NCBI GenBank assembly: GCA_963815195.1
Contig: CAWFGE010000013.1
Span: 576,001 to 640,000 of the forward strand
Direction: 5' to 3'
From: an uncultured Planctomycetaceae bacterium
Lineage (GTDB): Bacteria; Planctomycetota; Planctomycetia; Planctomycetales; Planctomycetaceae
Length of the DNA: 64,000 nucleotides
Part shown: positions 3,817-62,671 of the stretch, piece by piece
Layout: every line of letters begins with the position of its first letter
Position numbering within the stretch: the first letter of the stretch is position 1
Notes under the pieces: model-generated
Told to the model about the DNA's origin: nothing
What the model saw: the letters and a program-made list of their open reading frames with translations, nothing else
The model's database searches: none
Position numbers and translations under genes: made by a program

Positions 3817-4175
3817 AACTCTGGCCCGCATTGGGCCTTTTGATAAAGAGGTTTGATTCAGGGATTCCCGGGGGTCGTTCCATCGGCCCCGGGAGTTCCA
3901 CGTTATGTCAACAATCGCATCGCCTCGGTGGAGATTCCGATGGAAGATTCGCCGAGGCTTCTTGGAATTCACCAATTCACCATGATTTGCCCGCTTGCAA
4001 GAGATTCCCAGTCCGCAAGTTCGACTTTCGGCTCCGCCATCGTCGTCCTTGGCCTTGTTCCGCCAAGGGGGGACTTTTCCCATCGGAAACAATCTGCCCC
4101 ATGTGAACGGCCTGCGTCGGGCCGCTTCACTCCCTTCCCCTATTCCCTTCCCTATCCGCGAGGTACACCGCTCCA

Positions 4176-7100
4176 ATGAACGCATTAATCCGAGGCTCGC
4201 TCCGGAACCCTTATGCGGTGACGGTGATGGCGTTAACTGTTTTGATCATCGGGGCGCTCACGCTTACGATGATCCCTGTCGACATTCTGCCCGTCTTCAA
4301 AAGCCCGGCGGTGCAGGTGCTGACCTTCTACGGCGGCATGCCCGCCGAAGCGATTGAAAAAGACATCACAAACCGCATGGAGCGGTGGGTCGGCCAGTCG
4401 AACGGCCTCAAGCGGCAGGAATCCCGCTCGATCGTCGGGGCGAGCATCGTGCGGAACTATTTCCAGGACGATGTCGATCCCAACGGCGCGCTGACGCAGG
4501 TCAACTCGCTCGCGCTCTCGACGCTGCCCAACCTGCCGCCGGGGACTTTGCCCCCGGTCGTTTTGCCGTTCGACCCCACGAGTTCGACGCCCGTGTGCCT
4601 GGTCGCTCTCGACAGCAAAACGCAGCCTGAATCGATTCTCTACGATGTGGGCCGGTACGAAGTCCGCCCGATGATCATGAGCAACCCCGGCGCGGTCGCC
4701 CCCGTGGTTTACGGCGGCAAGCTGCGGGCGGTGATGCTGTATCTCGACCGCATCCGCATGCAGGCCCGCGGGCTGTCGCCTTTGGATGTGATGACCGCGG
4801 TGGATCACTACAACGTGTTCCTGCCCAACGGCAGCGTGAAAATGGGCGACATGGATTACGCCATCTCCTCGAACTCGCTGTATGATTTCGTCGAACGGAT
4901 GGGCGACATGCCTTTGACGGACCAACCGGGCAACCGCTCTTACGTCAGAGACGTGGCGACGCCCAAGGACGCCGCGTTCATTCAGACGAACATCGTTCGC
5001 GTGAACGGCCGGAAGCAGGTGTATGTCCCGGTGTACCGCCAATTGGGATCGAGCACGCTGGACGTGGTGGATACGCTCCACGGATCGATCGACGACATGC
5101 AAGCCCGGCTGACGCGGCCGGGCATCGACCTGAAGCTCGTGATGGACCAGTCGGTTTATGTGCGGGCTTCGATTCATGCTCTGGCTCAGGAAGGCGTATT
5201 GGGGGCGATTCTGTGCTCGCTCGTGATTCTCTTGTTCCTGGGTGAATGGCGGATGACGGTTATTGCAATTCTCATGCTCCCGCTTTCGGTGATGGGAGCG
5301 GTGATTTGCCTGTATGCCACGGGGAACACGATCAACGTGATGACTCTGGCGGGGATGGCGCTTGCCATCGGGCCGCTGGTGGATACCGCGATCATCGTCT
5401 TGGAGAACACGCACCGCCACCTGGGGTTGGGGGCGCCGCCGCGCGAAGCCGCGTTTCGCGGGACGAGCGAAGTGGCCATGCCCGCCTTGATCGCGACCTT
5501 ATGCACGTTCCTCGTCTTGGCTCCGTTGGCGCTCATGCCCGGGATGGGACGGTTTCTGTTCCGGCCGATGGCGCTCGCGGTCGCCTTTGCCATGATCTGT
5601 GCTTACTTGCTGTCGCAGTCGCTGGTGCCCGCCTATTCGGCGATTCTGCTCAAGCCGCACCGCAAGGGCGAGCACGGGGAAGACGAGGACGCCCCGGCGA
5701 GTTGGAACGTCGTCGCCCGCGCTTTCGCCGCGTGGGAAGGCGTCATTCAACGGTCCATCACCAAGTACGGCCAGATTCTGGACCGCGTGATGCAGTTTCG
5801 CTTATTGACGATCGGCATCAGCTTCGCCCTTTTGGCCTGCGCCGTTCTGTTCTTCACCCCGATTCTGCGGCGGGAGTTCTTCCCCGAAGTGGACGCGGGG
5901 GCCTTCCAAATTACCGTCCGCGCTCCCAGCGGAACGCGGATCGAAAACACGCAGGAGTACATCGCGGATGTGGAAGACGCGATTCACAAGGCGATCGATA
6001 AGCACGACCTGCAACTCGTGCTCTCGGAAATCGGGCTGACCGCCGACTGGTCCGCCGCTTATACGCCCAACTCCGGACCGATGGATGCGATCATCAAAGT
6101 CCAATTGAGCGAACACCGGAATCACACGGCCCAACATTACGCCGACGTGCTTCGCCAGAACTTCCGCAAGGACCCGCGGTTCAGCCAGATGGAGTTCGCC
6201 TTCGACACGGGCGGGATGGTCCGCGGGGCGCTCAATGAAGGCAAGTCCACGCCGCTGAATGTCCGCATCACCGGCAAAAACATGGAACTCGCGCACGAGA
6301 TCGCCGAGAAGATCAAAGCCGAGGTGGCGAAGGTCCCCGGCGTCGTCGACGCGCAGATCGTGCAGCGGCTCAACTATCCGCAGTTCAACATCAATGTCGA
6401 CCGGTCCAAGGCGGCGGATATGGGTTTGACCCAGCAGGATGTGATGCGGAACGTCGTGGCCGCGGGCAATTCGAGCATTTCGTTCAACAAGAAGAACTTC
6501 TGGATCGATCCGGTCAGCTACAACCAATACTTCGTGGGCGTGCAGTATCCGGAGCACGAAATCAACTCGCTCGACACGCTGTTGGATGTGCCGATCACCG
6601 GCTTGAAACAATCGCACCCGGTTCCGTTGCGGTCGATTGCCACGGTCACTCGGAACACCGTCCCCACGGAAGTGACGCACAACAACATCCAGCCGACCAT
6701 CGATTTGACGATGGGCGTATCGGGCCGGGATCTCGGGCACGTGGCCGACGATGTGGCCGGCGTCGTGGGCAACTTCGGCGAAAAGCAGGAAGGGGCCGTT
6801 TGGGCGCCTTATGATCCTCGCTATCCGGACACGAAAGAGACGCTGGCGGGCTCGAAAATCCTCTTGAGCGGCGAATACGCCCGGATGCAGGACACGTTCT
6901 ACAACCTGGGCATCGGACTGATTCTCGCGTCGCTGTTGATCTACTTCCTGCTGGTCGCGTTGGTTCGCTCCTGGGTTGTGCCGCTCAGCGTGATGCTCGC
7001 CGTGCCTTTGTTGTTGATCGGCGTGTTGTCGCTGCTTTACCTCACGGGAACGGCCCTCAACGTGCAGTCGCTGTTGGGCGTGATTTTCGTGGTCGGGATT

Positions 7101-37260: not shown

Positions 37261-38125
37261 CTATTGCGCCTGGCGGGTCAGGTTGCGAAAGCGTTTGAGG
37301 AGGTCCTGCGTGATCGGGCCGGGCTTGCCGGTGCCGATGGGCCGGCCGTCCAGACTGACGACGGCGATCACCTCGGCCGCGGTGCCGGTGAGGAAGCATT
37401 CATCAGCCACGTAAATATCGTGGCGGGTGAAGGCGGTTTCCTCGAAAGGGATCTCCGCCTCGCGGGCCAGGCCGATCACGGCATTGCGGGTGATGCCCTC
37501 CAAAATCCCGGCTTCTGGCGGCGGCGTTTTGAGGACGCCCCGCTTCACAATGAACAGATTGTCGCCCGTGCATTCGGCGACTTCGCCTTTGTGGTTGAGC
37601 ATCAAGGCTTCCACGCTGCCGGCGTCGGTGCCTTCGATCTTGGCGAGAATGTTATTGAGATAATTCAGCGATTTGATCCGCGGGCTGAGCGCGGCCGGGT
37701 GATTGCGGATCGTGCTCGCCGTGATCAGCTTCATCCCGTTCTGGTAAATCTCTTCGGGGTAAAGCGTGATCGTATCGGCAATGATGATCACCTGCGGCTC
37801 GCTGGTCTTGCGGATGTCCAGCCCCAAACTGCCCGCGCCCCGCGTGACGACGAGCCGCACGTAGCCGTCGCCGATCCCGTTGGCCTTCACCGTGTCGTTG
37901 ACGGCGGCGATCATGTCGGCCTGGCTCGATGGGGATTTCCAGGCGGATCGCGCGGGCCGACTCGTAAAGCCGCTCGATGTGCTCGTTGAGCAAAAACACC
38001 ACGCCGCCGTAAACGCGAATGCCCTCGAACACGCCGTCGCCGTAGAGCAGACCGTGATCGTAAACGCTGATCTTGGCGTCGTCTTTGGGGATGAGTTTCC
38101 CGCTGATATAAACCTGGGCCGGCAT
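37261..38125 (-). CDS. ilvE: Branched-chain amino acid transaminase (apparent frameshift near 37925)
   Basis: [61 protein letters not shown]. Confidence 0.92.
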
Positions 38126-38147
38126 TTTAGTCTCGGTAAAGGTGTCT

Positions 38148-38352
38148 GGCGAGCGGGGGGCGTCAGCCCCCTGGTTTCGTCGAGAGTTAGTTCGTGTTGA
38201 TACCGCGGCGACCAGGCTCCATTGCGATCGTGTGCTGAAACTGATGTTGTCAGTGACCAGGGGGCTTACGCCCCCCGCTCGCCTGTGCGCTCGATGTTGT
38301 CAGTGACCAGAGGGCTGACGCGGGCACCGACCGAAGGTTGGTCCGCTCGCCT
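38148..38352. repeat. REP cluster (three copies of the GGCGAGC family, BIME-like)
   Basis: Forward copy 38148-38175; reverse copy 38256-38283; reverse variant 38306-38351 with a nested hairpin; GATGTTGTCAGTGACCAG repeated at 50-bp period. Confidence 0.9.
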
Positions 38353-39161
38353 ACGCGACCTTCAGCGTTTCGATCTGGCCTTCGCTGAGCCGCACAATGC
38401 GGTCGGCCTGGCGGGCAATGTGGTCGTCGTGGGTTACCATAATAATAGTGAGTCTGATCTTGCTCGTTCAAGCTCTTTAAGAGGCCCATGATTTCCTGCC
38501 CGGTGCCGGCGTCGAGGTTGCCCGTCGGCTCGTCCGCCAACAGCACCTGGGGCCTGGCGACCAGGGCCCGGGCGATCGCGGCCCGCTGCATTTCGCCGCC
38601 GGAAAGTTTCGACGGCTTATGCCGGACGCGGTGTTCCAGCCCGACTTTCTGGATGATCTCGCGGGCCTGGTTGCGAAGCTCTTTCCGCCGACGCCAATAG
38701 CCCAACAGGGAATGCCGAATCATCAGCGGAGCGACGACATTTTCTTCGAGGCTCAGTTCCGGCAGCAAATGATAGAACTGAAAGATGAACCCGAACACGC
38801 GGTTTCGCAGTTGGTCCCGCGTCTTGGCGGGCAGGTCGTCGATCCGCCGGCCGTCCAGAAAAATCTCGCCGACGTCGGGCGTGTCCAGAAGCCCCAGCAA
38901 ATGGAGCAACGTGCTCTTACCGGAACCCGACTGCCCCACGATCGACAGAAACTCCCCGCGCTTGGCGGCGATCTTTACGCCCTGCAGCACGCGGATTTTT
39001 TCCTGCCCGTAGCGGTAGGATTTTTCGAGCGCCACCGCTTCGACGTGCAAAGGCGGCTCGGCGGTTCCCGGTGGTTCGGTTTGATCTAATGCCAACGTTT
39101 CGTCCGTCCGATCCGTGGCCGCGTCCCGGGCCACACGATCCGCGATTCCAGCTTGTCCCAT
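38351..39161 (-). CDS. lolD: Lipoprotein-releasing ABC ATP-binding protein (apparent frameshift near 38455)
   Basis: [37 protein letters not shown]; shifted frame restores [16 protein letters not shown] and stops at 38351. Confidence 0.85.
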
Positions 39162-39231
39162 AATTCGCCTCCATGACGAAGGTTGATTGTTTGCAATAAA
39201 ACGAACCCAAGCGTTCGCAAGTCATCAGCCT

Positions 39232-39258
39232 GGCGAGCGTGGGGCGTGAGCCCCATGA
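39232..39258 (+). repeat. REP copy with compensatory stem change
   Basis: GGCGAGC GTGGGGC GTGA GCCCCAT GA. Confidence 0.85.
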
Positions 39259-39290
39259 TCATTTCCGATCGATGCGAATGCCTTTTGATA

Positions 39291-40979
39291 TCACTCGTAC
39301 CGCAAGGCTTCCACCGGATGCAGCCTGGAAGCCCGGCGGGCGGGGAGCACGCTGGCGAGAACGGCGATCGTCATCGCTCCCAAAGCGACCCAGAACACCA
39401 TCATCGGATCGACGGCGGTGGGAATCTCCGGGAAGTAATAAATCTTCTCGTCGAAGACTTTCCGGCCGGTCAACCAGGTGATCCAGCCTTCGATGGTGTT
39501 GATGTATCTCACGAACACGAGTCCCAATGCCACCCCCACGCCGCTGCCGACGATGCCGAGGGCCAGACCGTACGAAAGGAAGATGCTCATCACGCCCCGC
39601 GAACTGGCGCCCAGGGATTTCAAGATGCCGATGTCGCGGGTTTTCTCGACGACGATCATATAGAAGATCGCCAGGATTCCGAACCCGGCCACGGCGATGA
39701 TCAAAAACAACAGCACGTTGAGAATCGCCGATTCCACTTCGACCGCCGCCAGGAGCGGGCCTTGCTTTTGTTCCCACGTCCGCACCGTGAACACGCCGGG
39801 CGGAAACGCGGCTTTCAGGCTTTTGACGACCTCGTCGGCATCGTCAAAATTCTTGAGCTTGATTTGAATGGAGGTGACGTTCCGAACGCCGGTGACGGGC
39901 GCGTACATTCCGCGCATTTGCTGGAGGTATTCGAGGTTGCAGAACACGAGGCTGGAATCGTATTCGCTCATCCCGCATTTGAAGACATCCACAACGGTCG
40001 CGTTGAAGCGGCAGGGTTCCGGCGGAGTGCTCGTGCCGATCGTGCTAATGACCACATCGTCGCCGGGCCGGACCATCATCTGTGTTTTGACTTTGCCCGT
40101 GCCGGTTTCATCGTAGGGGAAACTGATGAGCCCCAAGCCGACGTAAAGCCGGCCCGGCAGCGGAGCATTGGGGTCGGCGGGCTTGGCCGGAGCGGTTGGT
40201 GCAAACACATCGTCGATATTGGCGGCCGCGGCTTTCTCGGTCAACTGATCGAACGCATTTTTCGGCGCCGCCACGGGCTGCTTGGGTTTCTTCGAGCCTG
40301 CAAATGGAGGGGTGTCTTTCGCTACGACGGGGGCGTTGGGCGATTGGTCCTTCTCTCCGCCCGTGGCGAAAGGCGGCGGTTCGGCGGGCGGGAAGGGGTT
40401 GGGTTCGGCTTTTTCTTCGCGCGGGTCCTCCCGGCGATGGAATTGCTCCATCATCCATTGCTGGCGTTCCATCCAGATCTTGCGGTAGGCGAGCGCCTCT
40501 TCGGTCAGCTTCCAACCGGGCGGCGCATCGCGGGAGCGAAGCGGGGCTCGCACGACCTTGCCGTCCTCTTTGAGCTGGTGGTAACTCTCCAGATAATCCA
40601 CCAGCGGTCCAACCTTGGCTTTGCTCTCCGGCTTGATCCCGATGAGCGTCACCGGCCGGGTGATATATTGCCCGGCGTATTGAAAATGAAGCAGCCCGAC
40701 CACTTCGACAGTGGCGGTCATGGCCTCGACTTTGTCGCCGGCCACTTCGCGGATGCGGGCCATCTGCTTCTCGGCATCCGGGACACCGTCGATGCTGTTG
40801 GTCTCCACGATCACATCGGCGAGTAACCCTTTGATGCGGTCCTGCATCTCCGTGCTGAAACCCGCCATCACGCTGTTGACCACAATCATCGTGGCCACGC
40901 CCAGCATCACGCTGATAATGCACGCCAAAGCAATATACCGCGTGCGAAGATACCTGAGACAAAGCAAAATCTTGTACAT
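39291..40979 (-). CDS. Lipoprotein-releasing ABC permease (LolC/E, FtsX-like) with a Pro-rich periplasmic insertion
   Basis: LRYLR..ISVMLGVATMIVVNSVMAGF; IIAVAGFGI; VVEKTRDIGILKSLGA; IYYFPEIP; PARRASRLHPVEALRYE. Confidence 0.9.
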   Translation of the reverse strand: MYKILLCLRYLRTRYIALACIISVMLGVATMIVVNSVMAGFSTEMQDRIKGLLADVIVETNSIDGVPDAEKQMARIREVAGDKVEAMTATVEVVGLLHFQYAGQYITRPVTLIGIKPESKAKVGPLVDYLESYHQLKEDGKVVRAPLRSRDAPPGWKLTEEALAYRKIWMERQQWMMEQFHRREDPREEKAEPNPFPPAEPPPFATGGEKDQSPNAPVVAKDTPPFAGSKKPKQPVAAPKNAFDQLTEKAAAANIDDVFAPTAPAKPADPNAPLPGRLYVGLGLISFPYDETGTGKVKTQMMVRPGDDVVISTIGTSTPPEPCRFNATVVDVFKCGMSEYDSSLVFCNLEYLQQMRGMYAPVTGVRNVTSIQIKLKNFDDADEVVKSLKAAFPPGVFTVRTWEQKQGPLLAAVEVESAILNVLLFLIIAVAGFGILAIFYMIVVEKTRDIGILKSLGASSRGVMSIFLSYGLALGIVGSGVGVALGLVFVRYINTIEGWITWLTGRKVFDEKIYYFPEIPTAVDPMMVFWVALGAMTIAVLASVLPARRASRLHPVEALRYE

Positions 40980-41006
40980 GGGGGACTTCCTTGTCCAAAC
41001 AGAAAA

Positions 41007-41034
41007 GGCGAGCGGGGGGCGTAAGCCCCCTGGT
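41007..41034 (+). repeat. REP copy downstream of the RAYT gene
   Basis: GGCGAGCGGGGGGCGTAAGCCCCCTGGT. Confidence 0.92.
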
Positions 41035-41064
41035 CACGCACAATTGATTATCAACAACGGATTC

Positions 41065-41619
41065 TCAAGACCATTCACGAGTGAGAACCCAGCCTTCATC
41101 AACTTCCAACACCAACGGATACTCTTGATTCCGCACATATTCCACCGCGGCATAAATCGCTTTTTCATTTCGCAGCTTTCTTACCGAAGCCGATTCCGTC
41201 CACCAGGTTCCACTTTCCGGTTTCGACCAAGTTCGATTCAGCCGCCGGCTCGCATAACTTTTGAAGTCCCGCATAATATCCTCTGGTTCCGGGTCACCAT
41301 TCACTCCGACAACCAGATGCACATGGTTTCGCATGATGGCGAATGCCAGGAGCTTCCAACCGCGGTATTGGGCCGTCTCTAGGAATTGCTCTGCCATCGC
41401 TTTTGCTTGGTCTTCGACGAGGTAGATGGGTTTCGATTTCAGTTGGGAATTGGAATACGTTTTGAGTTCTCGAATGTCTTGGAAATAAGGTGTTTGAGGA
41501 CGATTCTCGATGCGGTGTGTTCCTGTTTCTTCGTCGAGGATGCGGCCGACAAAACCACGCTCATCACCGGGACGCCACGTCCCATACGTCGTCCAAGTGA
41601 TGAGCCAATATCGGTCCAT
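41065..41619 (-). mobile_element. REP-associated tyrosine transposase (RAYT/TnpA-REP, HUH Y1 family)
   Basis: LITWTTYGTW..GD.RG; MRNHVHLVV (HUH); FKSYASRRL; WW; AVEYVRNQ (catalytic Tyr); REP copies on both sides. Confidence 0.9.
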
Positions 41620-41630
41620 TAACAAATCCA

Positions 41631-41658
41631 GGCGAGCGGGGGGCGTAAGCCCCCTGGT
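41631..41658 (+). repeat. REP copy 11 bp upstream of the RAYT start
   Basis: Exact match to the 41007 copy. Confidence 0.92.
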
Positions 41659-41769
41659 TTATTCTGAATGGTCAAAAGAGATTTAGATTTGGATTTTGAT
41701 TGTGCTTCCTGGCGACTGATCTTCAAGTGGAACAGCTTTGCTTATTGCACGTGACCAATTGATGTATTG

Positions 41770-41943
41770 TCAAATGACACCACCGAATGTTCGGTAGACT
41801 GGTTCCATTGAAGTACCTTCAGGAACTTCTCTTGTCCTCAAGGATTCCTCTTTCCTCAAGGATTCCTCTTGTAGTGACGAACATCCGACGAATGCGAAAA
41901 GACTCAGCCATAAAAACAGAAAATACTGAAATTGATTCTTCAT
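41770..41943 (-). CDS. Small putative lipoprotein or gene remnant between inverted REPs
   Basis: MKNQFQYFLFLWLSLFAFVGC signal with lipobox-like end; 18-bp tandem duplication; AT-rich. Confidence 0.4.
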   Translation of the reverse strand: MKNQFQYFLFLWLSLFAFVGCSSLQEESLRKEESLRTREVPEGTSMEPVYRTFGGVI

Positions 41944-41971
41944 TTGGAGAACACCTTGAACCAAGTGAGTA

Positions 41972-41999
41972 ACCAGGGGGCTTACGCCCCCCGCTCGCC
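41972..41999 (-). repeat. REP copy next to the lysS stop codon
   Basis: ACCAGGGGGCTTACGCCCCCCGCTCGCC. Confidence 0.92.
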
Positions 42000-42000
42000 T

Positions 42001-43588
42001 TTAGGTGCCTTCCGGCCTTAACAGCGGAAAGAAGATCACATCCCGGATGCTTTGGCTGTTGGTGAGCAGCATCACCAGCCGGTCGATGCCGATGCCCAGG
42101 CCGCCGGCGGGGGGCATGCCGACTTTTAAGGCGCGGATGAAATCGTGATCCATCTTGGCCATCGAGTCTTCCTCAGGCAGCCCCGCGAGTTGGGTGCGGA
42201 ACAGTTCTTCCTGGAGCCTAGGGTCGTTGAGACTCGGTGTAGGCGTTCGCGAGTTCCATGCTTTGCACGAACAACTCAAACCGCTCGGCCACGCTGGGAT
42301 CATCCGCTTTGCGCTTGGTCAGCGGGCAAATGCTCGCGGGGTAATCGATGACAAAGGTCGGATTCTTCAGATGCTCTTCGACCGTGGCTTCAAAGACTTC
42401 GTTGACGACGACGTCGGGATGGACTTCTGAATTGTCCATCCGCTCGATGAGTTCCTTGCCGATCTTTCCATGCTGAGCCAACTCGTGGGCCTTCTTGGAA
42501 ACGGCGGCCGTGTCGCTCATTTCGCAGCCAGCGTGTTCGCGGAATAGATCGGCATATTTCAAGCGCGGCCAGGGCGGCGTGAAATCGATTTGATCCTCGC
42601 CCCAGGAAAAGACTAATGATTCTTCCAGGTGAGCGGGGGGCGTAAGCCCCCTGGTTGTCGCGGATGCAGATCCATCGGAAGAAACCAGGGGGCTGACACC
42701 CCCCGCTCGCCTGGTCGCGCGGGCGGCGTTTACGATGATGGCCTCGGTCAAATCCATCATCGTTTCGTAGTTGCCGTAGGCCTGGTAGATTTCGATCATC
42801 GTGAACTCGGGGTTGTGCGTCGTGTCGATGCCTTCGTTGCGAAACACGCGCCCGATCTCGTAAACCCGCTCGATGCCGCCCACCATCAGCCGCTTGAGGT
42901 GCAGTTCCAAAGCGATCCGCAGGAACAGATTCATATCCAGCGTGTTGTGGTGCGTGATGAACGGCCGGGCGGCGGCACCGCCGGCGATGGCATGCAGCAC
43001 CGGCGTTTCCACTTCGTGGAAGTCCCGCTCAGTCAGCGTTTGGCGGATGGAATTGATGATCCGCGTGCGGCCGAGCATTCGCTCCAAGACGCCGTCGTTA
43101 TAAATCAGATCGATATACCGCTGCCGAAGCAGCATCTCCGTATCTTTGGCTCCGTGGAATTTCTCCGGCGGCTGGCTTAACGACTTACAAAGGATCGTCA
43201 GGTCCCGAACGAAGATCGAAATCTCGCCGGTGTCGGTTCGGCGGAGCGCGCCGTCGACGCCGATGAGATCACCCAGGTCCAACTGTCCCATCAGTTCCCA
43301 TTGCTCGTCGGACAAGTCGCCGCGCGAGAACAGGAGTTGAATCTTGCCAGTGTAATCTTGAATGTCATAAAACCTGAGCTTGCCGGCTTTGCGGCGGAGC
43401 ATGATCCGCCCCGCGACCCGCACGTTTTCGCCTTGGGTGCCCGCTTCCGTTGGGGCTTTCGCGCGGACTTGGGCGATGGGCTGGTGATCGTCGAACCGGC
43501 GGCCGAACGGATCGTGTCCCAACTCGACGATCCGGTCGAGTTTCTTCAGGCGTTCCTTTTCAAAGCGGTCAATTTTCTCGGCGGACAT
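42001..43588 (-). CDS. lysS: Lysine--tRNA ligase, class II (apparent +1 frameshift near 42232; in-frame REP doublet inside)
   Basis: OB-fold [72 protein letters not shown]. Confidence 0.96.
42625..42714. repeat. REP doublet (REPIN) inserted in frame in lysS
   Basis: Forward REP 42628-42655 and reverse REP 42684-42711; 90 bp from CCAGG to CCTGG; translated as [29 protein letters not shown]. Confidence 0.92.
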
Positions 43589-43840
43589 CAGGGCAGTCGA
43601 TTTCTCTTGGCAGTCGTTGTTTTCGTGAATTCAATGGTTTGGACACCAAAACCCGGTCTGGGGAACGCCGGGAATTGGGGAAAGTCGGCAAATCATGGAA
43701 AAAAGTTCAAAATCCGTCAATGGCAAGTCCGGATACCTGCGAACATAGAGAATCCCGGGGAAACTGGGAAGCGCAAAGTCCCTGCGTGCCGCAGGAAACC
43801 TTGCCGGAGGACCGAGCCGGCTGGTTGGCGAGCGTGATCT

Positions 43841-43915
43841 GTAACCCGAAGCGCAAGTTTTGAAGTTGCGCTGTTTTAGCCACGAAGTGGCGACAGCACA
43901 TAGCCTTGGGCGTGA
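43841..43915. repeat. Composite fragments of other REP-like palindromes
   Basis: AACCCGAAGCGCAA..TTGCGCT hairpin followed by GCCACGAAGTGGC hairpin and TAGCCTTGGGCGTGA. Confidence 0.45.
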
Positions 43916-44335
43916 TGTCTTCCCGCATCCGATCGCTGCGTCTGGCCAACCTCTGGCCACGTCCGCACGGCGTTCGCCCGCGGGCCTACACACCTCTCCC
44001 ACGTCACGCCCATGAGCAACTGGTTCTTCGGGACTGAGCAGCCCCGCCGTGGCATCCGCCTTTCTGTTTCTTTCCTTCACTCACCCTAGGATCGCCAGGC
44101 CCCAGGGGGGAAAGGGGGCGGTTCGCCCATCATCCGATCCCCAACCCGCGCCGCGCACTTTCCGCCACGGAGATACTCACCACACACGAACCTGATGAAT
44201 AATTCGGGTTCAAGATCAATAGTTTAAGATCAAGCAAACTCCCATCTTAAGAACGGCGTTGCATGCCACCCCGTCGCACATGGCGAGATACAGGACACCA
44301 TTCGCGAAACAGGGCGATGAGTAGCCGGTCGGCGT

Positions 44336-47300
44336 TCACCTTCGCGAAGATATTGTACTTTCCGTAGTGAAATTCTGGCTGGATCGATCCTGGTCCGCAG
44401 CAGCGCACCACAGTTTGATCGTGCGATCGATACTGCCCGTGGCCAAGGTCTTGCCGTCGGGCGCGATCGCCACGGAGATCACGCGATCGCGATGCCCCAA
44501 GAGCGTCATGCGTTCCTGACCTGTCGGCACGTCCCAAAGCTTGACCGTCCCATCGTCACACCCCGAGACGATCGTTTGACCGTCTGGAAAAATCGCCAAC
44601 GCCGTGATTCGAGCCGTGTGACCACGAAAATCGGCCAACAGCCTCCCCGTACTCGCATCCCAGGCCCATAAAAAGCCATAGGTCCCACCGGTCACCACCG
44701 TCTTGCCATCCGGAGAGACAACCAGAGCCCAAGTTCCCCTCGTCTCCCCCGTCGCATCACATCGCTGAGTTCGTGTGAGCGTTTGCGGATCCCAAAAATC
44801 GACCCATCCCAAATCGTCGGCGGTAATTATTCTCTTTCCGTCAGGCGAGTAAGCCAATGCAGTAACTGCGCTCCCACCCGGTGCTTTGAATGTCGCCCGC
44901 AATTTGCGGCTTTCGAGATCCCACAGGTTCATTTCGCAGGTCACAGAAGAGACCACCAAAGTTTTTTCGTCGGGCGAGAGCACCATGGACCAGAGCGCCA
45001 TGGGGATTGTCAATCGAAGCCAGTTCCTCGCGAGTGACGACATCCCAAAGCTTGAGCGGCCCCTTGAGACTCCCAGCAGCTAGATGGCGGCTGTCCCGAG
45101 AGAACGTGACCCACGAGATGAAATCCCCCTGGCAATCGAAGGTCGCTTGAGTTTCTCCCGTGACGGGATTGCAGATTCTGATCGTCCGGTCATTTGCCGA
45201 GTAGGCCAAAGTTTTTCCATCGGGAGAAAACGCAATGCCGGCTCGACCGGCTTTATGCCCTTGGATGGTCAGTTCATCCGGTTTTAGATTGACATCCCAG
45301 AGTTTGATGGTCTTGTCAAAACTTACGGAGGCCAGGGTTTTTCCGTCGGGGGAGAAACGGACGCCCGATATTTGGTTGAGGTGGGCCATTGTCCGAGACT
45401 TTCCTGTCTCAGGCTCCCAGAGCCTCACGGTTCGATCGTAGCAGCCCATGGCCAGTGTCTTGCCGTCAGGAGAATAGGCAACCGCGGAAATCTCGGCGAC
45501 TTGCGTATCGTACACGGCGATCTCGGCTTTCGTCGCCACATCGAGAATTCGGAGAGTGCGGTTCCATCCCGCATCCGAAGTGGCCGCCAATCTTGTCCCA
45601 TCGGGGGAGAAGGCGACGGCCCAAGCGCCTCGCCATTCGTGGATCAATTGCGGGGGTGCGGTTGCCAAGTTCCACAATTTGGTTTTGGAAGTATGCCAAG
45701 CCGAAGTCGAAGCCAATTTCGTGCCGTCCGGCGAAAACGCCACGCAGTGAACCTCCTCATTTACCTGGAGCGTTTGACGCACGGTTCCCGTCGCGAGATC
45801 CCAGAGTTCGAGCGAAGAACTACCCACCGCCAAAGTTTGGCCGTCCGGGGAAAACGCCAAGGAACGTACCGGCCCCGTCAAACATCTGAGGGTTGCCGTC
45901 TGCTGCCAGGTCGCCACGTCCCAGAGTTTGATTGTCCGATCATTTCCGCCGGTCGCCAGCACCTGGCCATCGGGAGAGAATGCCACACACCAAACCCAGG
46001 ACCGATGGCCCTGGAGTGATACCAGTTCTTTCCCGGTCTTGGCGTCCCAGACCTTCACTATCGAATCCTTACCACCCGAAGCCAGTTTCGTTCCGTCTGG
46101 GGAAAACGCCACCGAGGCCAGGGGTCCCGTGTGTCCCGTCAAGGTGAGACGGTGAGCCCGATGGCATAGCCGCCACAGGTAATACCATTCAAAGGTTCGC
46201 AGATCTTCTTGTGTCCCCTGGGGCCGCAGGCTTTCCAGCAAGTCCAGCACGCGGGTGACATGCCCCTTTTCCCAAGCCTGATGTGCCAGGTTGATCTGTG
46301 AGGCGTAAAGCCTCCGACGGCCCAGCAAGTCTGAGTCCCGCGCCTTGTCTCGTTCCACGTTTGCGAGCTGACTCTGCTTCTCAGCCTCCATGCGGAGTTG
46401 ATCCGCGAGTGTTGCATTGGCCTCGGCTTCCTTTTTCCGCTGATCCGCGTCACTTCGGGCGACTTCGGCCCGCTGTTGGGCTTGCTCGGCTTCCACTGCG
46501 TTTTCTCTGGCAAGTTGTGCTTGTTGCATGGCGATTGCCTTCTCGCGAAATGCCTCGTCAGAATTGTCATCGGCGCCTGTCGATGAAACGCTTCGGATTC
46601 CGCACGACGTCCGGCTTCAATGGCGAAGTACGAGGAGACAACAACGCCGATCACAAGGCACAGTGCAATGGTCGCCAGCAAGCTAGCGACTGCAGAATTT
46701 CGATGGCACCATCTCCAGGTTCGCTCAATGGCATTTATGGGCCGAGCCACAATGGGTTCGCTGCGCAGAAATCGGCCGAGGTCATCGGCGAGGAGTTGCG
46801 CTGTGCCGTAACGGCGGTGCGGTTCCTTCTCCAGGCACTTCAGGCAGATCGTTTCCAGATCGCGGGGAATCTTGGGGTTCAACAATCGCGGCGAGGCGGC
46901 TTCAATGTGGATCACTTGCTGAATGGTCTCGACAACTGACGCGGCCCGGAACGGCGGGCGGCCCGTGAGGCATTCATAAAGGATTGCGCCTAACGAGTAC
47001 ACATCGCTGCTGGGACCGATGAGGCTTCGAAGACCTTGGGCTTGCTCGGGGGGCATGTAACTCGGCGTGCCCACGATTTGGCCGGTGCGGGTCAGGTCGC
47101 TGTTTTCCTCGACTCGCGTCGCCAATCCGAAGTCGGTGATCCAGGCCTGGTCTAGCGCGTCGATCAGCACGTTCGAGGGTTTTAGATCGCGATGCAGCGT
47201 CCCTTTCTGGTGGGCATAGTGGATCGCTTCGGCCAGTTGGCGGACATAGATCGCGGCTTTTTGAGGCGACAACAGGTTCTCGCGGAGCAGCGCCGACAGG

Positions 47301-47827
47301 TCGTGGCCCGCGACGTAGTCCATCGAAAAAAATTGGCAGCCCTCGTGTTGGCCCACTTCGTGGATCGCGACAATATGCGGGTGCTGCAAACTGGCCGCCG
47401 CCTGCGCTTCCGTCTGAAACCGCTTGACATCCTCTAGGGTGGCCAGTCTCCCCGAGGCGATCATTTTCACGGCCACGATGCGTCCCAGCGTTTTTTGCCG
47501 GGCCTTGAATACCACTCCCATCCCGCCGCGGGCGATCTCTTCCAAGAGTTCATAGTCGCCAAAATAACCGATCGACTGCCCCGGCCGAATAGCGTTGTTC
47601 AGCGACTGGCCAAACCCGCGAATCGGCTCCGCCAACCGATCGATGCGATCCCGCTGAGCGAAGAACGTTTGCAGATCGTCCGCAAGCTCTGGATGGCGTT
47701 CCAGAATCTCCTGACGATTCGGCGGATTGCCGGTTTCGCAGGCGCGAATGTAATCGGCGATCACCGCCTCCAACTGTTGTTCGCGATTCTCATCTTCCTC
47801 GGATTTTTTTCCCTGGACTTTAGACAT
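44336..47827 (-). CDS. Ser/Thr protein kinase with TM helix, coiled coil and WD40 repeats (apparent frameshifts near 46573 and 45000)
   Basis: IARGGMGVV, VAVK, HRDLKPSN, DFG, GTPSYMPPE; three consecutive ORFs continue as GH..VAFSPDG..WD repeats. Confidence 0.9.
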
Positions 47828-57601: not shown

Positions 57602-60600
57602 ATGATGTTGACATGCCCCCATTGTGAATCGTCGCTCGGAGCGGCAAGCGGCTCCGCGTCGCTTTACGAAAGCGCCACGTGGGACGGGAGGTGCTTGCAT
57701 TGCGGGCGGAGCATCTATCAAAAAGCTCCGCACGACTCGCAAACCCTCGACGGGCGGCAGATCGGCGAACACGCCCTCGGCTTGTTGGACGAAACCGCCG
57801 ACCACATCGGGCAAACGCTCCTGCCCGATTGGGGGAGCGGCGAAAAACAGCGCGATAAGCTCGAAGACATCTGGGGCGAAGCGCGGTCGGCGGAAAACGC
57901 CGGGATGACGATCAAATGGAAATCGGAGTCCAACGACATCGCCCCGTTGGCGACCGAACCGCTCACGTTTCCGGAACTGGAAACGAAAGCCGACTCGGAA
58001 GACGAAGGGCGGGCCAGCGTGAGCCATTTGCAAACGCTCCTGCCGGCCGGAGCCGACGGCGGGGACGACGAAGACGACCCGAGCATGCAGATGACGTTCG
58101 CTCCCGAACTGTTGCCGACGATCGAAACCGAACCGTTCGACGCCAGCGCGAGCACGAGCCGCTCGCTGTCGATCCGCGCAAGAACGTTGGACCACAACCC
58201 CGCGCAGCCCCGGGGCAATTCCGATTACGAGCTGTTGGAACGGCTCGGCCAGGGCGGGATGGGCGTGGTCTATAAAGCCCGGCAGGCGTCCATCGACCGG
58301 CACGTTGCGGTGAAGATGGTCAAAACGGACTCGGTCAGCGAGAAGCAGCGGCGGAGCTTCGTTTCCGAAGCGGTCGTCACCGGCGAACTCGATCACCCGA
58401 ACATCGTGCCGATTTATGACCTGGGCACCGATGAATCCGGGGCGCTGTTCTACTCGATGAAGCAGGTCGTGGGCACGCCTTGGAAAGACGCGATCCGCCA
58501 GAAATCGCAGGCCGAGAACCTGGAGATTTTGATGCGCGTCGCCGACGCCGTCGCTTTCGGGCACTCCCGCGGCGTCGTGCACTGCGACCTCAAGCCCGAA
58601 AACGTCATGCTCGGCGATTACGGCGAAGTTCTGGTGATGGACTGGGGCCTTGCGCAGCTTTTGCCGGCTTTTCAGAAGCCCCGCGAAATCGCGAAGTCCG
58701 CCGACGGCGGCGGCACGCCCGCGTACATGGCGCCCGAAATGGCGGCCGGCAAAGCGGGGCTGATTACGATCGCCAGCGATGTGTATCTGTTGGGGGCGAT
58801 TCTGTACGAGATCATTGCCGGCAAGGCGCCGCACGCCGGCAAGAACGTGATGGGCTGCCTCGTCAACGTCGCCAAAAACGTCATTCAGCCCACCGACAAA
58901 ACCGGCGAACTTTTAGACATTGCCTACAAGGCGATGGCAACTCAGCCCGAAGACCGCTTCGCCGACGTGCCGGCGTTCCAGGCGGCGGTCCGCGATTATC
59001 AATCGCACTCCGAAAGCACCCGCCTCTCCGACCGGGCCCTGGCCGGTCTGGAAGAAGCCTGCGAAAAGCAGGACTACGAACTTTTCGCCCAGGCGCTCGC
59101 GGCGTTTCGCGAAGCGGTTTTGTTGTGGCGCGAAAACTCCGCGGCTGACGAAGGCTTGGGTGCCGCCCGTTACGCCTATGCCCAGTGTGCTTATCAAAAA
59201 GGCGACTACGATCTCGGCTTGTCGCTGCTCCAGGAAGACAATCCCGAGCATGCGGAGCTGTACCAGAAAATCCAGGCCGCCCAGCACGAGCGGGAAATCC
59301 GCCAGCAGCGGCTCCGCCGCACCAAACGGCTCGTGGCGGCGCTTGGGGTATTGATGGTGCTTGGAGCCTCGGCGGCGGCGTTTGTGATCAACGAAGCCCG
59401 CAAAGAAGCCGACGGCCAGCGCGAGATCGCCGAGCATCAAGCCGAGGTCGCCGACGAGCAGCGGGGCATCGCCCAGAAGCAAACCCAACTGGCCCAAGCC
59501 GAGAAACAGAAAGCCGACGAGGAACGCCAAAACGCCGAGAAATCCCGGGACGAGGCGGTGCTGCAAAAGCGCAAAGCCGAAGATGCCAAAAAAGCCGCCG
59601 ACGCAGCGCGGACGCTGGAAGAAAAAGCCAAGATCGCGGCCCAAGAGGCGGAGCAGGAAGCCGTTTCCGCCCGGCAAGCCGAAGCCTATGAAGCCTACAT
59701 CGCCCGGATTCAATTGGCCGCCGCGAAAATCGATGAAAACGCCTTCGACACGGCCCGGCGGTTGCTCGAGGAATGCCGGCCCCAGGGCGGTGAAAAGGAT
59801 CTCCGCGGCTGGGAATGGGCCAGGCTGATGCACCTTTGTTGGCAAAGTGAGCGGACTTGGAAGATGGCCGCCCCCGCCGAGGCCGTTGCCTTTTCGCCCG
59901 ACGGTTCGCGGTTTGTCACAGCGGCCTGGGACGGCCATGCCCGCGTGTGGGATTTGGCCAGCGGCAAGGAACTTCACGATTTGAAACACGAAGGCCAATA
60001 CGTGCATGCCGCGAAGTTCTCGCCCGATCGAAAACTCATCGCCACCGGCAGCAACGATCCCACCGGCTTCGTGCGGCTCTGGAATGCCAAGACCGGCGAG
60101 CCGGTGAAATCGTTCTTCGGCCACACCGATGCCGTGCTCAGCGTGCGGTTTTCGAAGGATGGGCGCAGGCTTGTCACCACGTCCTACGACAACACCGCCC
60201 GCTTGTGGGATGTCCAAACCGGCAAGGAAATCCAGCGGTTTGAAGGGCACTTCTGGTGGGTGTGGTCGGCGGCGTTCTCGCCCGACGAGAAACTGCTTGT
60301 CACCGCCAGCCACGACGGCACCGCAAACGTTTACGAGGTGGACACCGGCAAAAAGATCGCCGACTTCACGGGACACCAAGGCCCGGTGTTCGCGGCCGAA
60401 TTCTCGCCTGACGGCCAGACCGTCGCCAGCGGCGGGTTCGATCATCGCATCTTGATCTGGAAGCCCGAAGAGCAGGCCTGGACCGATCTGCAAATGCTCG
60501 CCCAAGGCAAGCAGAATCATTCGCCGGTCTTTACCTCCCTCGACGGCCACACCTCCGGCGTGCGTTCGCTGGAGTTCTCCGCCGACGGGCAGCGGTTGCT

Positions 60601-62671
60601 CACCGGCTCGGATGACAACACGTTAAAACTCTGGAACCTGGAAACCAAACGCACGATCGAAACGTTGCGCGGGCATGACGGTTGGATCGCCTGCTGCACG
60701 CTTTCGCCGGATGGACAATGGGCACTCTCGGCCGCGCACGATCAGCACGTGCGGTTGTGGAACCTCAACGGCTACGAAGAAACCCGCGTGCTCGGCGGGC
60801 ATGTCTTGAAGGGACACAGCGAAGCCGTGCTGAGCGCGGCCCTTTCGCGGGACGGCCAATACATCGCCACCGCCAGCCGCGACCGCACCGCACGGTTGTG
60901 GTCCGCCGCCGACGGCAAGGAACTGAGAACCTTCGCGGAAGGGCACAGTTTTCTGTCGATGCGAGCCGCGTTTTCACCGGACGGCCGGTGGCTGTTCACG
61001 GCGGCGTTTGACAACACGGTCCGCGTGTGGAACGTCGCCCACGGCACCGAGATCGCCCGGCTCGATCACACCGGACGCAACGCAGCGCTCGCGGTCTCGC
61101 CGGACGGCAAATATCTCGTCACCGGCAGCGACGACAACTCCGCCAAGGTTTGGGAACTCGATGCCCTGCTCGAAGCCGCCAAAGCCCAGCGGCCGCCCGA
61201 ACCCTTGTGGATCCTCGAAGAGCACCGGCGGGAAATCACGGCGATCGCGATCTCGCCGAACGGCCGCTGGATTTACACAGGCGACGCCCGCGGGCGCGGT
61301 TTTCTGTGGGACAAGACGACCGGCAAAATTCGCCACCGCTATATCGGGCACGCGGGTGCCGTCACCGATGCCGCGTTTCTGCCCGACGGGTCCCGCGTCC
61401 TCACCGCCAGCCGCGACAACACCGTCGGCCAATGGGACGCGAACACCGGCGAGGAGCATCGCAAACAAATCCTCCGGCATTCCGAAGCGGTGAGTTCGCT
61501 GGCCATCCTGCCCGACGGCCGCCGAGCGATCACCAGCAGCGACGACAAAACCGTCCGGCTGTGGAATCTGGAAACGGCCAAGGTGGAAACGACATTGCAC
61601 GAAGGCGACGACATTCAAACCGTCGCCGTCTCGCCCGACGGCCGATTGGCGTTGGGGCTGAGCAGTGTGGAAGGGCGGATTCGGATCTGGCAGTTGGACA
61701 CCGGCCGCGAGTGGCTGCCCGTCGATAACAACGGCCGGCCGGGTCCGTTTTTTGAATTGACCTCCGAAATGGATTCGCTGTGGTCCGCGACGTTTTCGCC
61801 CGACAACCACGGTCTGCTCACCGTCGCAGGGAACGATGTCCGGCTGTGGGATCTCAAGACCCGCGAAGAACGCATGAGCTTCAATCCCCACGGGGCCGTG
61901 GCGTCGGCGGAGTTTTCGCCCGATGGAAAATGGCTCGTGACAGCCGGCTGGGATCACACCGCCCGGATCTGGAACATCCAAACCGGACGGGCCGAGCATA
62001 AGCTCGTCGGCCAGCACACGGACGACATCAACCACGCCGTCTTCTCGCCCGATGGCCGGCAGGTCCTCACGGCCAGCGACGACGGCACCGCGGTTTTATG
62101 GAACATCGAAACCGAGTCGCCCGCAGCGATTTTGCGCGGGCACGGCAAGCGGATCAACTCGGCCGTGTTCTCAAACGATGGCCGATGGATCGTCACGGCT
62201 TCGGACGATCGCACCGCCCGCGTGTGGGACGCGAAAACGGGCACGGAGCTTCTGGTCCTCACCGGCCACGAGTGGGCTGTGCAGTCGGCGGAGTTCTCCA
62301 AGGACGGCCGGCGGATCATCACTGCCAGCGACGACAACACCGCCCGCGTCTGGAAGCTGGTGAAGCCCGGCGTTCAACCGGATAAAGGAAAATGGACCGC
62401 GGAACCCGGGTGGGTGCTCAAAGGCCACTCGGCAGGCGTGGTTGCGGCGGGCTTCTCACCGGATGGAAGACGAATCATCACAGGCAGCCGGGACGACACC
62501 GCGATCATCTGGGACGCAGACACCGGCAAAGAGCTTCTGACGCTCCGCGGCCACACGCAGGACGTCACCTCGGCCCGCTTCTCGGACGACGGCCGCGAAG
62601 CCCTCACCGGCAGCCGCGACGGCACCGCGATCCTTTGGCTCACCGACAAAGGCGATTTCAGACGGCAATAG
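57602..62671 (+). CDS. Giant Ser/Thr kinase: N-terminal zinc ribbon, kinase, TM helix, coiled coil, about 20 WD40 repeats
   Basis: CPHC/CLHC; LGQGGMGVV; VAVK; HCDLKPEN; DWG; GTPAYMAPE; repeated GH..FSPDG..WD. Confidence 0.93.
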   Translation: MMLTCPHCESSLGAASGSASLYESATWDGRCLHCGRSIYQKAPHDSQTLDGRQIGEHALGLLDETADHIGQTLLPDWGSGEKQRDKLEDIWGEARSAENAGMTIKWKSESNDIAPLATEPLTFPELETKADSEDEGRASVSHLQTLLPAGADGGDDEDDPSMQMTFAPELLPTIETEPFDASASTSRSLSIRARTLDHNPAQPRGNSDYELLERLGQGGMGVVYKARQASIDRHVAVKMVKTDSVSEKQRRSFVSEAVVTGELDHPNIVPIYDLGTDESGALFYSMKQVVGTPWKDAIRQKSQAENLEILMRVADAVAFGHSRGVVHCDLKPENVMLGDYGEVLVMDWGLAQLLPAFQKPREIAKSADGGGTPAYMAPEMAAGKAGLITIASDVYLLGAILYEIIAGKAPHAGKNVMGCLVNVAKNVIQPTDKTGELLDIAYKAMATQPEDRFADVPAFQAAVRDYQSHSESTRLSDRALAGLEEACEKQDYELFAQALAAFREAVLLWRENSAADEGLGAARYAYAQCAYQKGDYDLGLSLLQEDNPEHAELYQKIQAAQHEREIRQQRLRRTKRLVAALGVLMVLGASAAAFVINEARKEADGQREIAEHQAEVADEQRGIAQKQTQLAQAEKQKADEERQNAEKSRDEAVLQKRKAEDAKKAADAARTLEEKAKIAAQEAEQEAVSARQAEAYEAYIARIQLAAAKIDENAFDTARRLLEECRPQGGEKDLRGWEWARLMHLCWQSERTWKMAAPAEAVAFSPDGSRFVTAAWDGHARVWDLASGKELHDLKHEGQYVHAAKFSPDRKLIATGSNDPTGFVRLWNAKTGEPVKSFFGHTDAVLSVRFSKDGRRLVTTSYDNTARLWDVQTGKEIQRFEGHFWWVWSAAFSPDEKLLVTASHDGTANVYEVDTGKKIADFTGHQGPVFAAEFSPDGQTVASGGFDHRILIWKPEEQAWTDLQMLAQGKQNHSPVFTSLDGHTSGVRSLEFSADGQRLLTGSDDNTLKLWNLETKRTIETLRGHDGWIACCTLSPDGQWALSAAHDQHVRLWNLNGYEETRVLGGHVLKGHSEAVLSAALSRDGQYIATASRDRTARLWSAADGKELRTFAEGHSFLSMRAAFSPDGRWLFTAAFDNTVRVWNVAHGTEIARLDHTGRNAALAVSPDGKYLVTGSDDNSAKVWELDALLEAAKAQRPPEPLWILEEHRREITAIAISPNGRWIYTGDARGRGFLWDKTTGKIRHRYIGHAGAVTDAAFLPDGSRVLTASRDNTVGQWDANTGEEHRKQILRHSEAVSSLAILPDGRRAITSSDDKTVRLWNLETAKVETTLHEGDDIQTVAVSPDGRLALGLSSVEGRIRIWQLDTGREWLPVDNNGRPGPFFELTSEMDSLWSATFSPDNHGLLTVAGNDVRLWDLKTREERMSFNPHGAVASAEFSPDGKWLVTAGWDHTARIWNIQTGRAEHKLVGQHTDDINHAVFSPDGRQVLTASDDGTAVLWNIETESPAAILRGHGKRINSAVFSNDGRWIVTASDDRTARVWDAKTGTELLVLTGHEWAVQSAEFSKDGRRIITASDDNTARVWKLVKPGVQPDKGKWTAEPGWVLKGHSAGVVAAGFSPDGRRIITGSRDDTAIIWDADTGKELLTLRGHTQDVTSARFSDDGREALTGSRDGTAILWLTDKGDFRRQ

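Follow-up and report, generated by a model that had tools for sequence, protein, structure and literature searches.

We looked at a stretch of 64,000 nucleotides, called the window throughout, that corresponds to G000:C13:576001-640000 in the genome of an uncultured Planctomycetaceae bacterium (G000; 8.87 Mb, 25 contigs, 94.6% complete). The locus of interest holds lysS, the gene of a lysyl-tRNA synthetase (LysRS), with two inverted copies of a palindromic repeat (REP) inside it. On the 3' side of lysS, the gene of a Y1 transposase is surrounded by three REP copies. All features of the locus are collected in Table 1. The lysS product scored 431.3 bits against the NCBIfam model lysS_bact (cut-off 427.6), and the OB-fold and the catalytic domain with motifs 2 and 3 were all present, split here by one base. 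Elsewhere in the window, two copies of a unit of roughly 3.65 kb lie at 487-6602 (79-89% identical over the 300-base stretches compared). The regions 44336-47827 and 59885-62646 presumably hold kinase and WD40-like repeat genes; the former is split over several ORFs and adjoins a sigma-factor-like ORF.

Table 1. Features of the lysS locus (window positions).
Feature	Position	Strand	Remarks
REP downstream of the transposase gene	41008..41032	+	hairpin pattern
HUH-Y1 transposase, class 3 TnpA-Y1-like	41065..41625	-	PF01797, 46.7 bits; 186 aa
REP just upstream of the transposase start	41632..41656	+	hairpin pattern
REP directly after the lysS stop codon	41974..41998	-	G001 has one close behind the stop
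lysS, class II lysyl-tRNA synthetase	42001..43588	-	Pfam PF01336 and PF00152; two frames in this assembly
Extra base, +1 frameshift in lysS before motif 3	42232	.	probably an assembly error
90-bp REP doublet (REPIN-like), in frame in lysS	42625..42714	-	whole codons 293-321; G001 doublet at the same codon
Arm 2, inverted copy	42625..42655	+	GTAA loop; encodes TRGLTPPAH on the gene strand
28-bp spacer	42656..42683	.	inverted relative to G001
Arm 1 (5' in the gene)	42684..42714	-	GGCGAG foot, 8-bp stem, GTCA loop; encodes RRAGGVSP

The lysS frame stays open through the insert, but it ends at 42218, which the initial annotation had missed, because of one extra base near 42232, upstream of motif 3. 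This base is probably an assembly error, as judged from one low-depth contig and three congeners: a short-read contig of the X3 run (depth 2.1) was identical over 42212-42463 except that it lacked base 42232, and lysS continued as a single frame past the equivalent position in G001, G002, and G003. Other genes of the G000 assembly are broken by similar frameshifts, and the assembly looks indel-prone. Single-base frameshifts, seen as translation drift, also break the ORFs at 37652-38125 and 38250-39161, of which one is aminotransferase-like (probably ilvE) and one encodes an ABC ATPase (probably lolD).

Compared with its G001 ortholog, lysS showed dN and dS of 0.035 and 0.257 before the insert, 0.025 and 0.619 after it, and 0.006 and 0.366 past the frameshift. 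Inside the insert the values were 0.239 and 0.304, inflated by the inversion of the spacer described below. By these rates, the gene is evidently under purifying selection and the insert is not. A search of the genome with PF00152 gave five matches, two of which were pieces of the window lysS; the remaining paralogs were only 28-39% identical to it, and no second lysS was found in the 94.6% complete genome. The suspicion that this gene might be a dead second copy finds little footing, with no other lysS found and purifying selection on both sides of the frameshift.

The insert spans 90 bp, starts with CCAGG, and ends with CCTGG. In an inverted-repeat comparison its arms measured 32 nt and were 91% complementary, and they differed by one and two mismatches from the 30-mer REP copy at 41630. 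The 90 bp run from within codon 292 to within codon 322, so that 29 whole codons were gained (R293-L321), and translation of the minus strand stayed open through the whole insert, in agreement with the in-frame, stop-free doublet first reported. The presence of the insert in lysS is confirmed, and the doublet belongs to the commonest palindromic repeat of this genome. On the lysS mRNA strand the insert was predicted to fold with -72.4 kcal/mol (z = -9.0), a value equalled by none of 200 shuffles; the G001 insert also folded strongly (-67.4 kcal/mol). At 42686-42705 on the minus strand, arm 1 and the start of the spacer, as oriented in G000, score as a weak intrinsic terminator.

G001 carries an intact lysS of 528 amino acids with a doublet at the same codon and with substitutions of its own, and misassembly is therefore unlikely. 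In four sequencing runs, neither junction of the insert was bridged by a contig, and cover of 42549-42645 was near nil; independent support comes therefore from G001 and from the proteins P0002, P0003, and P0006. One X1 contig of 761 identical bases stops exactly at 42714, which is compatible with a break at the repeat and proves nothing. A genus-specific DNA pattern gave no match in metagenome contigs, and a protein-based metagenome scan returned no close congener (best identity 60%).

The lysS genes of G000 and G001 are about 90% identical in DNA, and their arms 29/31 (arm 1, with the loop letters kept) and 28/31. The spacer behaved otherwise: in gene orientation it matched at 14 of 28 positions, which equals the self-complement baseline, versus 23 of 28 once flipped. 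It is free of stops in both orientations (SSDGSASAT versus LSDADQSEE). By eye, and at the peptide level, P0002 resembles the G000 orientation of the spacer. Among seven doublets shared by the two genomes, lysS alone aligned better flipped, five aligned better unflipped, and one was unalignable. On that count of one in seven, frequent flipping of spacers in this REP family was rejected.

We then placed the insert on a FastTree phylogeny of 118 LysRS sequences, built with the loop removed and rooted at the midpoint. The genus formed a single clade (support 1.0). Within it, P0004, the sister of G000 and G001, has a short loop and no insert; P0002, in another subclade, has a doublet whose arm 1 is long; P0003 carries one arm only. 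A single arm was likewise all that was found in G002, which retains arm 1, and in P0006 and P0121. A distant clade (P0076, P0083, P0101, P0110) carries doublets with arm 1 in a different frame, and P0081, a close sister of P0101, holds a different insert in the loop. Both an early gain with several losses and several gains fit this distribution.

The initial annotation had placed the insert in a short variable linker after motif 2, and this proved right. In PDB 3A74, eight residues link the helix that follows motif 2 to the next hairpin. AlphaFold2 modelled the insert of the G001 protein as a coil (296-325) with a pLDDT of about 47, flanked by helix 274-295 and strands 326-335; so low a pLDDT is unspecific, residues 135-164 and 249-260 of the same model being also below 50. 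Among 173 distinct lysS DNA segments (190 loci), 111 showed the short state of 21 residues, and the longest reached 92. Orthologs lacking this REP are often long here as well, many through other repeats, which partly fulfils a circumstance that the initial annotation had named as refuting. The site is, as the structure and these lengths suggest, a short variable linker, in which members of the family accommodate between 0 and about 70 extra residues. This REP itself was present in the loop of six of the 173 segments, after removal of eight loose-pattern hits without a matching hairpin (L046, L050, L059, L075, L100, L189, L238, and a second hit in L012). The six fall into three states of frame and orientation (G000, G001, and G002; G004 and L165; G012), and therefore into separate insertion events.

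In a second set, the best 120 protein homologs, which is biased to inserts, 119 could be parsed and 21 were short; exact six-residue matches to REP peptides were found in nine of the 119, the query included, with a few segment ends misparsed. In 30 genomes chosen for carrying the REP or a variant, none of the 19 lysS loops read contained this REP; from the other 11 genomes no match was obtained, and these may include loops with long inserts. Further repeats use this place. The loop of G159 (L294) holds a near-exact copy of a published class 3 REP, those of G158 (L295) and L103 hold heptamer tandem repeats, and those of L046 and L076 a different palindrome doublet, of the CCCTCTCCC type. Every loop insert observed leaves the frame open. 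Taken together, the sequences portray the LysRS loop as an insertion hotspot in Planctomycetaceae, used by several repeat families.

Outside lysS, 179 copies of the 30-mer REP were found in G000 within five mismatches. When copies were defined by their structure (GCGAG foot, 8-bp stem, GTNA loop), 300 were returned, versus none in the reversed genome, which shows that the REP does not arise by chance. The foot reads GGCGAG, and the base preceding CGA was G in all 300 copies. The stems co-vary, five stem types covering 254 of the 300. Sixty doublets were found, all foot-outward, with no case of the opposite arrangement and one tandem pair; the lysS spacing is common to 11 of the 60. The 180 singles outnumber the doublets under this narrow pattern, which leaves uncounted the long-arm partners of some singles, and the ratio of singlets to doublets is not below 2, unlike in SBW25-type REPINs. 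The long-arm variant, with a nested extra hairpin, occurs in 45 copies, one of them at 38306-38356. An exact 27-base pattern of the REP was found in 35 of 398 genomes of the family. Rfam models gave no match over 37500-44500 at E<=0.1. REPs as close to a stop codon as the one behind lysS can affect translation in E. coli.

That such repeats normally lie outside genes was borne out: 13 of the 300 copies (11 ORFs; 10 of 300 in a stricter first pass) fell in coding frames versus 342 of 600 random positions, as called by a hexamer classifier of our own that misses some frameshifted genes. The expectation that the family would also turn up in other conserved genes held as well. NCBIfam gave a clear placement for five of the ten ORFs other than lysS (ileS, uvrA, argJ, citramalate synthase, and waaA); the remaining five comprised a partial hsdM, weak GTPase, TPR, and LysM matches, and one without a match. 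Four of the ten were compared in relatives. The ileS insert of G000 was missing from G001, G002, and G006. In argJ, G000 has a doublet and G001 one arm. The uvrA arm was found in G000, G002, and, as a long variant, G001. The waaA doublet was present in G000 only, four congeners being compared, and the others have a different variable sequence there. Over the 12 doublets of G001, seven had a doublet at the syntenic site of G000, three did not, and two lacked a syntenic pair. Arm 2 of the argJ insert is of the long-arm variant, that of the ileS insert is a decayed form of it, and the G001 uvrA and the P0002 LysRS have it as arm 1, a spread which suggests that arms are exchanged or lengthened where they stand. 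We also considered whether doublets with the lysS spacing are all coding, and rejected it, since of the seven with a 26-nt gap only that of lysS lies in a recognisable gene.

The transposase gene, 1.0 kb from the insert, had been proposed to encode the cognate RAYT of the REP. A tie between the REP family and this enzyme stood; the class assignment did not, the protein scoring 46 bits against the NCBIfam RAYT model (NF047646, cut-off 80), its repeats lacking a GTAG foot, and its features being class-3-like. It carries the motifs NHVH, WWT, and YVRNQ, with H, H, W, Y, and Q invariant among 12 homologs, and differs at two positions from the printed class 3 consensus YV[VI][AENY]EQ. By motifs and repeats it resembles class 3 TnpA-Y1 more closely than a canonical RAYT. 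Against its G001 ortholog, dN was 0.064 and dS 0.381. That ortholog (L116, G001:C43:75640-76176) lies at the same place and has a TAA at codon 78 despite a dN/dS of about 0.17, which reflects either a recent loss or an assembly error. Hairpins with a GGCGAG foot and a GTNA loop, with stems specific to each genome, were found at 11 of 20 homolog loci of at least 46% identity versus none of ten at 45% or less. A homolog (E<=1e-15) was present in 15 of 23 REP-positive versus 11 of 31 REP-negative genomes, a loose link. More distant homologs of 34-40% identity, L133 (G012) and L137 (G262), have on their flanks a related repeat whose foot is GCGAG and whose loop is TTTA[TC], a sister REP type.

The initial annotation had also noted the distance of about 1 kb between insert and transposase. 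In G002 and G003 no transposase lies beside lysS, and G002 still has a REP arm in lysS; in G207, of another genus, a transposase lies just after lysS and the loop is empty. Nearness is therefore neither needed nor sufficient and neither explains nor predicts the insert. As a cause of the insert it was rejected on G002, on G207, and on the finding of the transposase motif near lysS at only 4 of 209 loci. Among these loci are L280 (G207:C61) and L070, each with a class-3-like transposase, which suggests the lysS 3' flank as a recurrent landing place.

The REP family is dispersed and mostly extragenic, its doublets point foot-outward, and its copies border a class-3-like HUH-Y1 transposase gene in this genome as in others. 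For the doublet in lysS, the reading that we regard as very likely is that it is translated as a disordered, roughly neutral loop and that the enzyme probably still functions; the proposal of a tolerated peptide loop fits the coil of the G001 model and the variable loop length. We infer translation of the insert from sequence comparison. The Y1 enzyme, or else recombination between REP copies, would have put the 90-bp unit into lysS, between the helix after motif 2 and the beta-hairpin; that the Y1 enzyme was the mover is our conjecture. The unit would have survived because 90 is a multiple of three, because the REP, which has a stop codon in one of its frames, is read in another, and because the linker is tolerant. 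After insertion it would have changed like unselected hairpin DNA: the spacer is inverted between the two species, likely through template switching or recombination at the inner ends of the arms, other congeners lack one arm, and arms exist in a short and a long variant.

Other explanations have to be weighed against a neutral, translated loop. The hairpin might owe its retention to a regulatory role, acting as RNA or DNA on lysS expression through pausing, attenuation when untranslated, or mRNA stability, an idea to which the very stable fold in both species, their well-conserved arms, and the terminator-like score of arm 1 followed by GTTTCTTC in G000 lend some appeal. Extragenic REP copies are, however, conserved to the same degree, the T-rich tail is not the same in G001, and a terminator scan returned 7 sites, at only three places, versus 4.1 +/- 1.7 in shuffled sequence, so that a promoter or terminator signal at the insert was rejected as not tellingly above shuffles. 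With P0004 free of the insert, three relatives (G002, P0006, P0121) reduced to one arm, and the REP absent from the lysS loops read in the 30 chosen genomes, we consider regulation unlikely, although a hairpin of about 70 kcal/mol kept in two species at a dS of about 0.3 could have a hidden effect. Equally, one may ask whether the doublet is removed from DNA or RNA and the enzyme made without it, as congeners without the insert exist and excision of REPINs was seen in population reads of Pseudomonas in the accessible part of PMC3116915. All inserts in the loop leave the frame open, as expected if they are translated, and contigs of the four runs contain no joint that skips 42625-42714 (weak evidence, as contigs alone were searched), and we hold removal to be extremely improbable. 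The excisable or translation-affecting hairpin of the initial annotation hence found no backing: no sign of excision or regulation appeared in the contigs of four DNA runs, the comparative data, or the terminator scan.

The flipped spacer could instead betray a cassette that inverts repeatedly, perhaps with the aid of the Y1 enzyme, and gives two LysRS loop isoforms within a population. It is inverted between G000 and G001, open in both orientations, and alone in this among the shared doublets; yet a single event between two species suffices, template switching is described to give such sporadic inversions (accessible part of PMC8604942), and no strand-changing joint was present at this place in the contigs of the four runs, where cover was near nil. 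The loop moreover looks disordered, which makes the isoforms likely equivalent, and repeated flipping is in our estimate highly improbable. Scarcely more can be said for a misassembled insert or a dead lysS, which would account for the frameshift at 42232 and for an insert that no contig bridges, repeats being known to provoke misassembly. The G001 doublet with its own substitutions and intact frame, the lack of a second lysS in the 94.6% complete genome, purifying selection on both sides of the frameshift, the X3 contig without the extra base, and the other genes broken alike in this assembly all speak against it, leaving it hardly probable. The boldest reading would see live REP units of a class 3 TnpA-Y1 that repeatedly write peptide into the LysRS loop, together with an invertible coding cassette. 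We think it very unlikely; if true, one population could hold two LysRS isoforms with different loops and mRNA signals.

With the insert read as a neutral, translated loop, a single loop of an essential enzyme exists among congeners in empty, single-arm, doublet, flipped-spacer, and long-arm states. This offers a natural series in which selfish palindromes may create, reshuffle, and lose protein sequence, with other repeat families using the loop elsewhere, and it adds comparative evidence for the turnover, at orthologous sites, of repeats like those of class 3 TnpA-Y1, a type that has been little studied. In-frame inserts and assembly frameshifts can also mislead the annotation and the protein trees of these genomes. 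Its importance would be far greater with spacers flipping inside single populations or with a hairpin that regulates lysS, both of which we hold to be improbable.

Rickettsia RPE-1 is a longer palindrome that is often coding, and we know of no cognate transposase for it. Compared with the RPEs of Rickettsia, the lysS unit measures 90 bp, its family is coding in about 4% of copies, and a Y1 enzyme is flanked by the REP. RPE-1, RPE-4, and RPE-6 are described as palindromic DNA read as protein inside housekeeping genes in the accessible part of PMC3733652. Coding palindromes, which the initial annotation had traced to these RPEs, are not confined to them. According to the same part of PMC3733652, intragenic GTAG/CGTC REPs are small palindromes that are mainly intergenic, with a minority lying fully in ORFs, PVC bacteria included; more than half of the intragenic inserts are dimers or groups encoding 20-30 amino acids, proposed as flexible linkers or loops. 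Their targets there include uvrA (twice in Opitutus terrae), tRNA synthetases (the glycyl-tRNA synthetase beta in two rows), and ORFs of Rhodopirellula baltica. These REPs have a GTAG or CGTC foot, whereas the lysS REP has GGCGAG; four text supplements of PMC3733652 gave no hit for 'lysyl', and repeated use of one site is noted in its accessible part only for recB of two Xanthomonas species.

A further parallel is class 3 TnpA-Y1, which in the accessible part of PMC6006769 is characterized by NHVH, W[TA], and Y---Q, a length near 178 aa, and an occurrence mainly in Planctomycetes. Its flanking repeats, dispersed in high copy, have a ...GAG foot, an 8-bp stem, and a GTNA loop (PMC6006769, Table S1), and the lysS REP shares the CGAG foot, the 8-bp stem, and the GTNA loop with rows of that table. 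The two differ in the foot (GCGA versus CnGA in class 3 hairpins) and in the stem, which is fully paired and co-varying in the lysS REP and has internal mismatches in the class 3 rows; core words of the lysS REP gave no class 3 row in Table S1. In-frame REPs are described in this source for subclass 2.4 and some 2.8 transposase genes, and its accessible part does not describe class 3 repeats in host genes. Canonical RAYTs (class 2 TnpA-REP) go with a GTAG/GTGG foot and Y---NP, in contrast to GGCGAG, YVRNQ, and the low RAYT score here. The REPINs of Pseudomonas fluorescens SBW25 are inverted doublets with preferred spacings that form long hairpins, and are linked to a RAYT, their singlets being read as remnants (accessible part of PMC3116915). 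The lysS REP family shares their inverted doublets with preferred spacings; SBW25 REPINs are described as extragenic, whereas the lysS doublet is intragenic and its family has three singles to each doublet.

In yeast genes, spacer inversion by template switching replaces several adjacent residues with no need of selection, as reported in the accessible part of PMC8604942; those cases involve short native repeats and at most five residues, and lysS a mobile-repeat insert and about nine. In literature in which subscription journals are thinly covered, we found no account of planctomycete LysRS with repeats in it, of host genes that contain class 3 repeats, or of inverted REPIN spacers, and the accessible parts of PMC3000692 (PVC indels) and PMC5941160 (inverted repeats of Proteobacteria) hold nothing on this point. 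Since intragenic repeats are already known, the doublet in lysS adds a well-documented case to them and does not constitute a new system, and it makes modest additions to what is described for REPs, REPINs, and RPEs: a link to class 3, a hotspot shared by several repeat families, and a flipped spacer.
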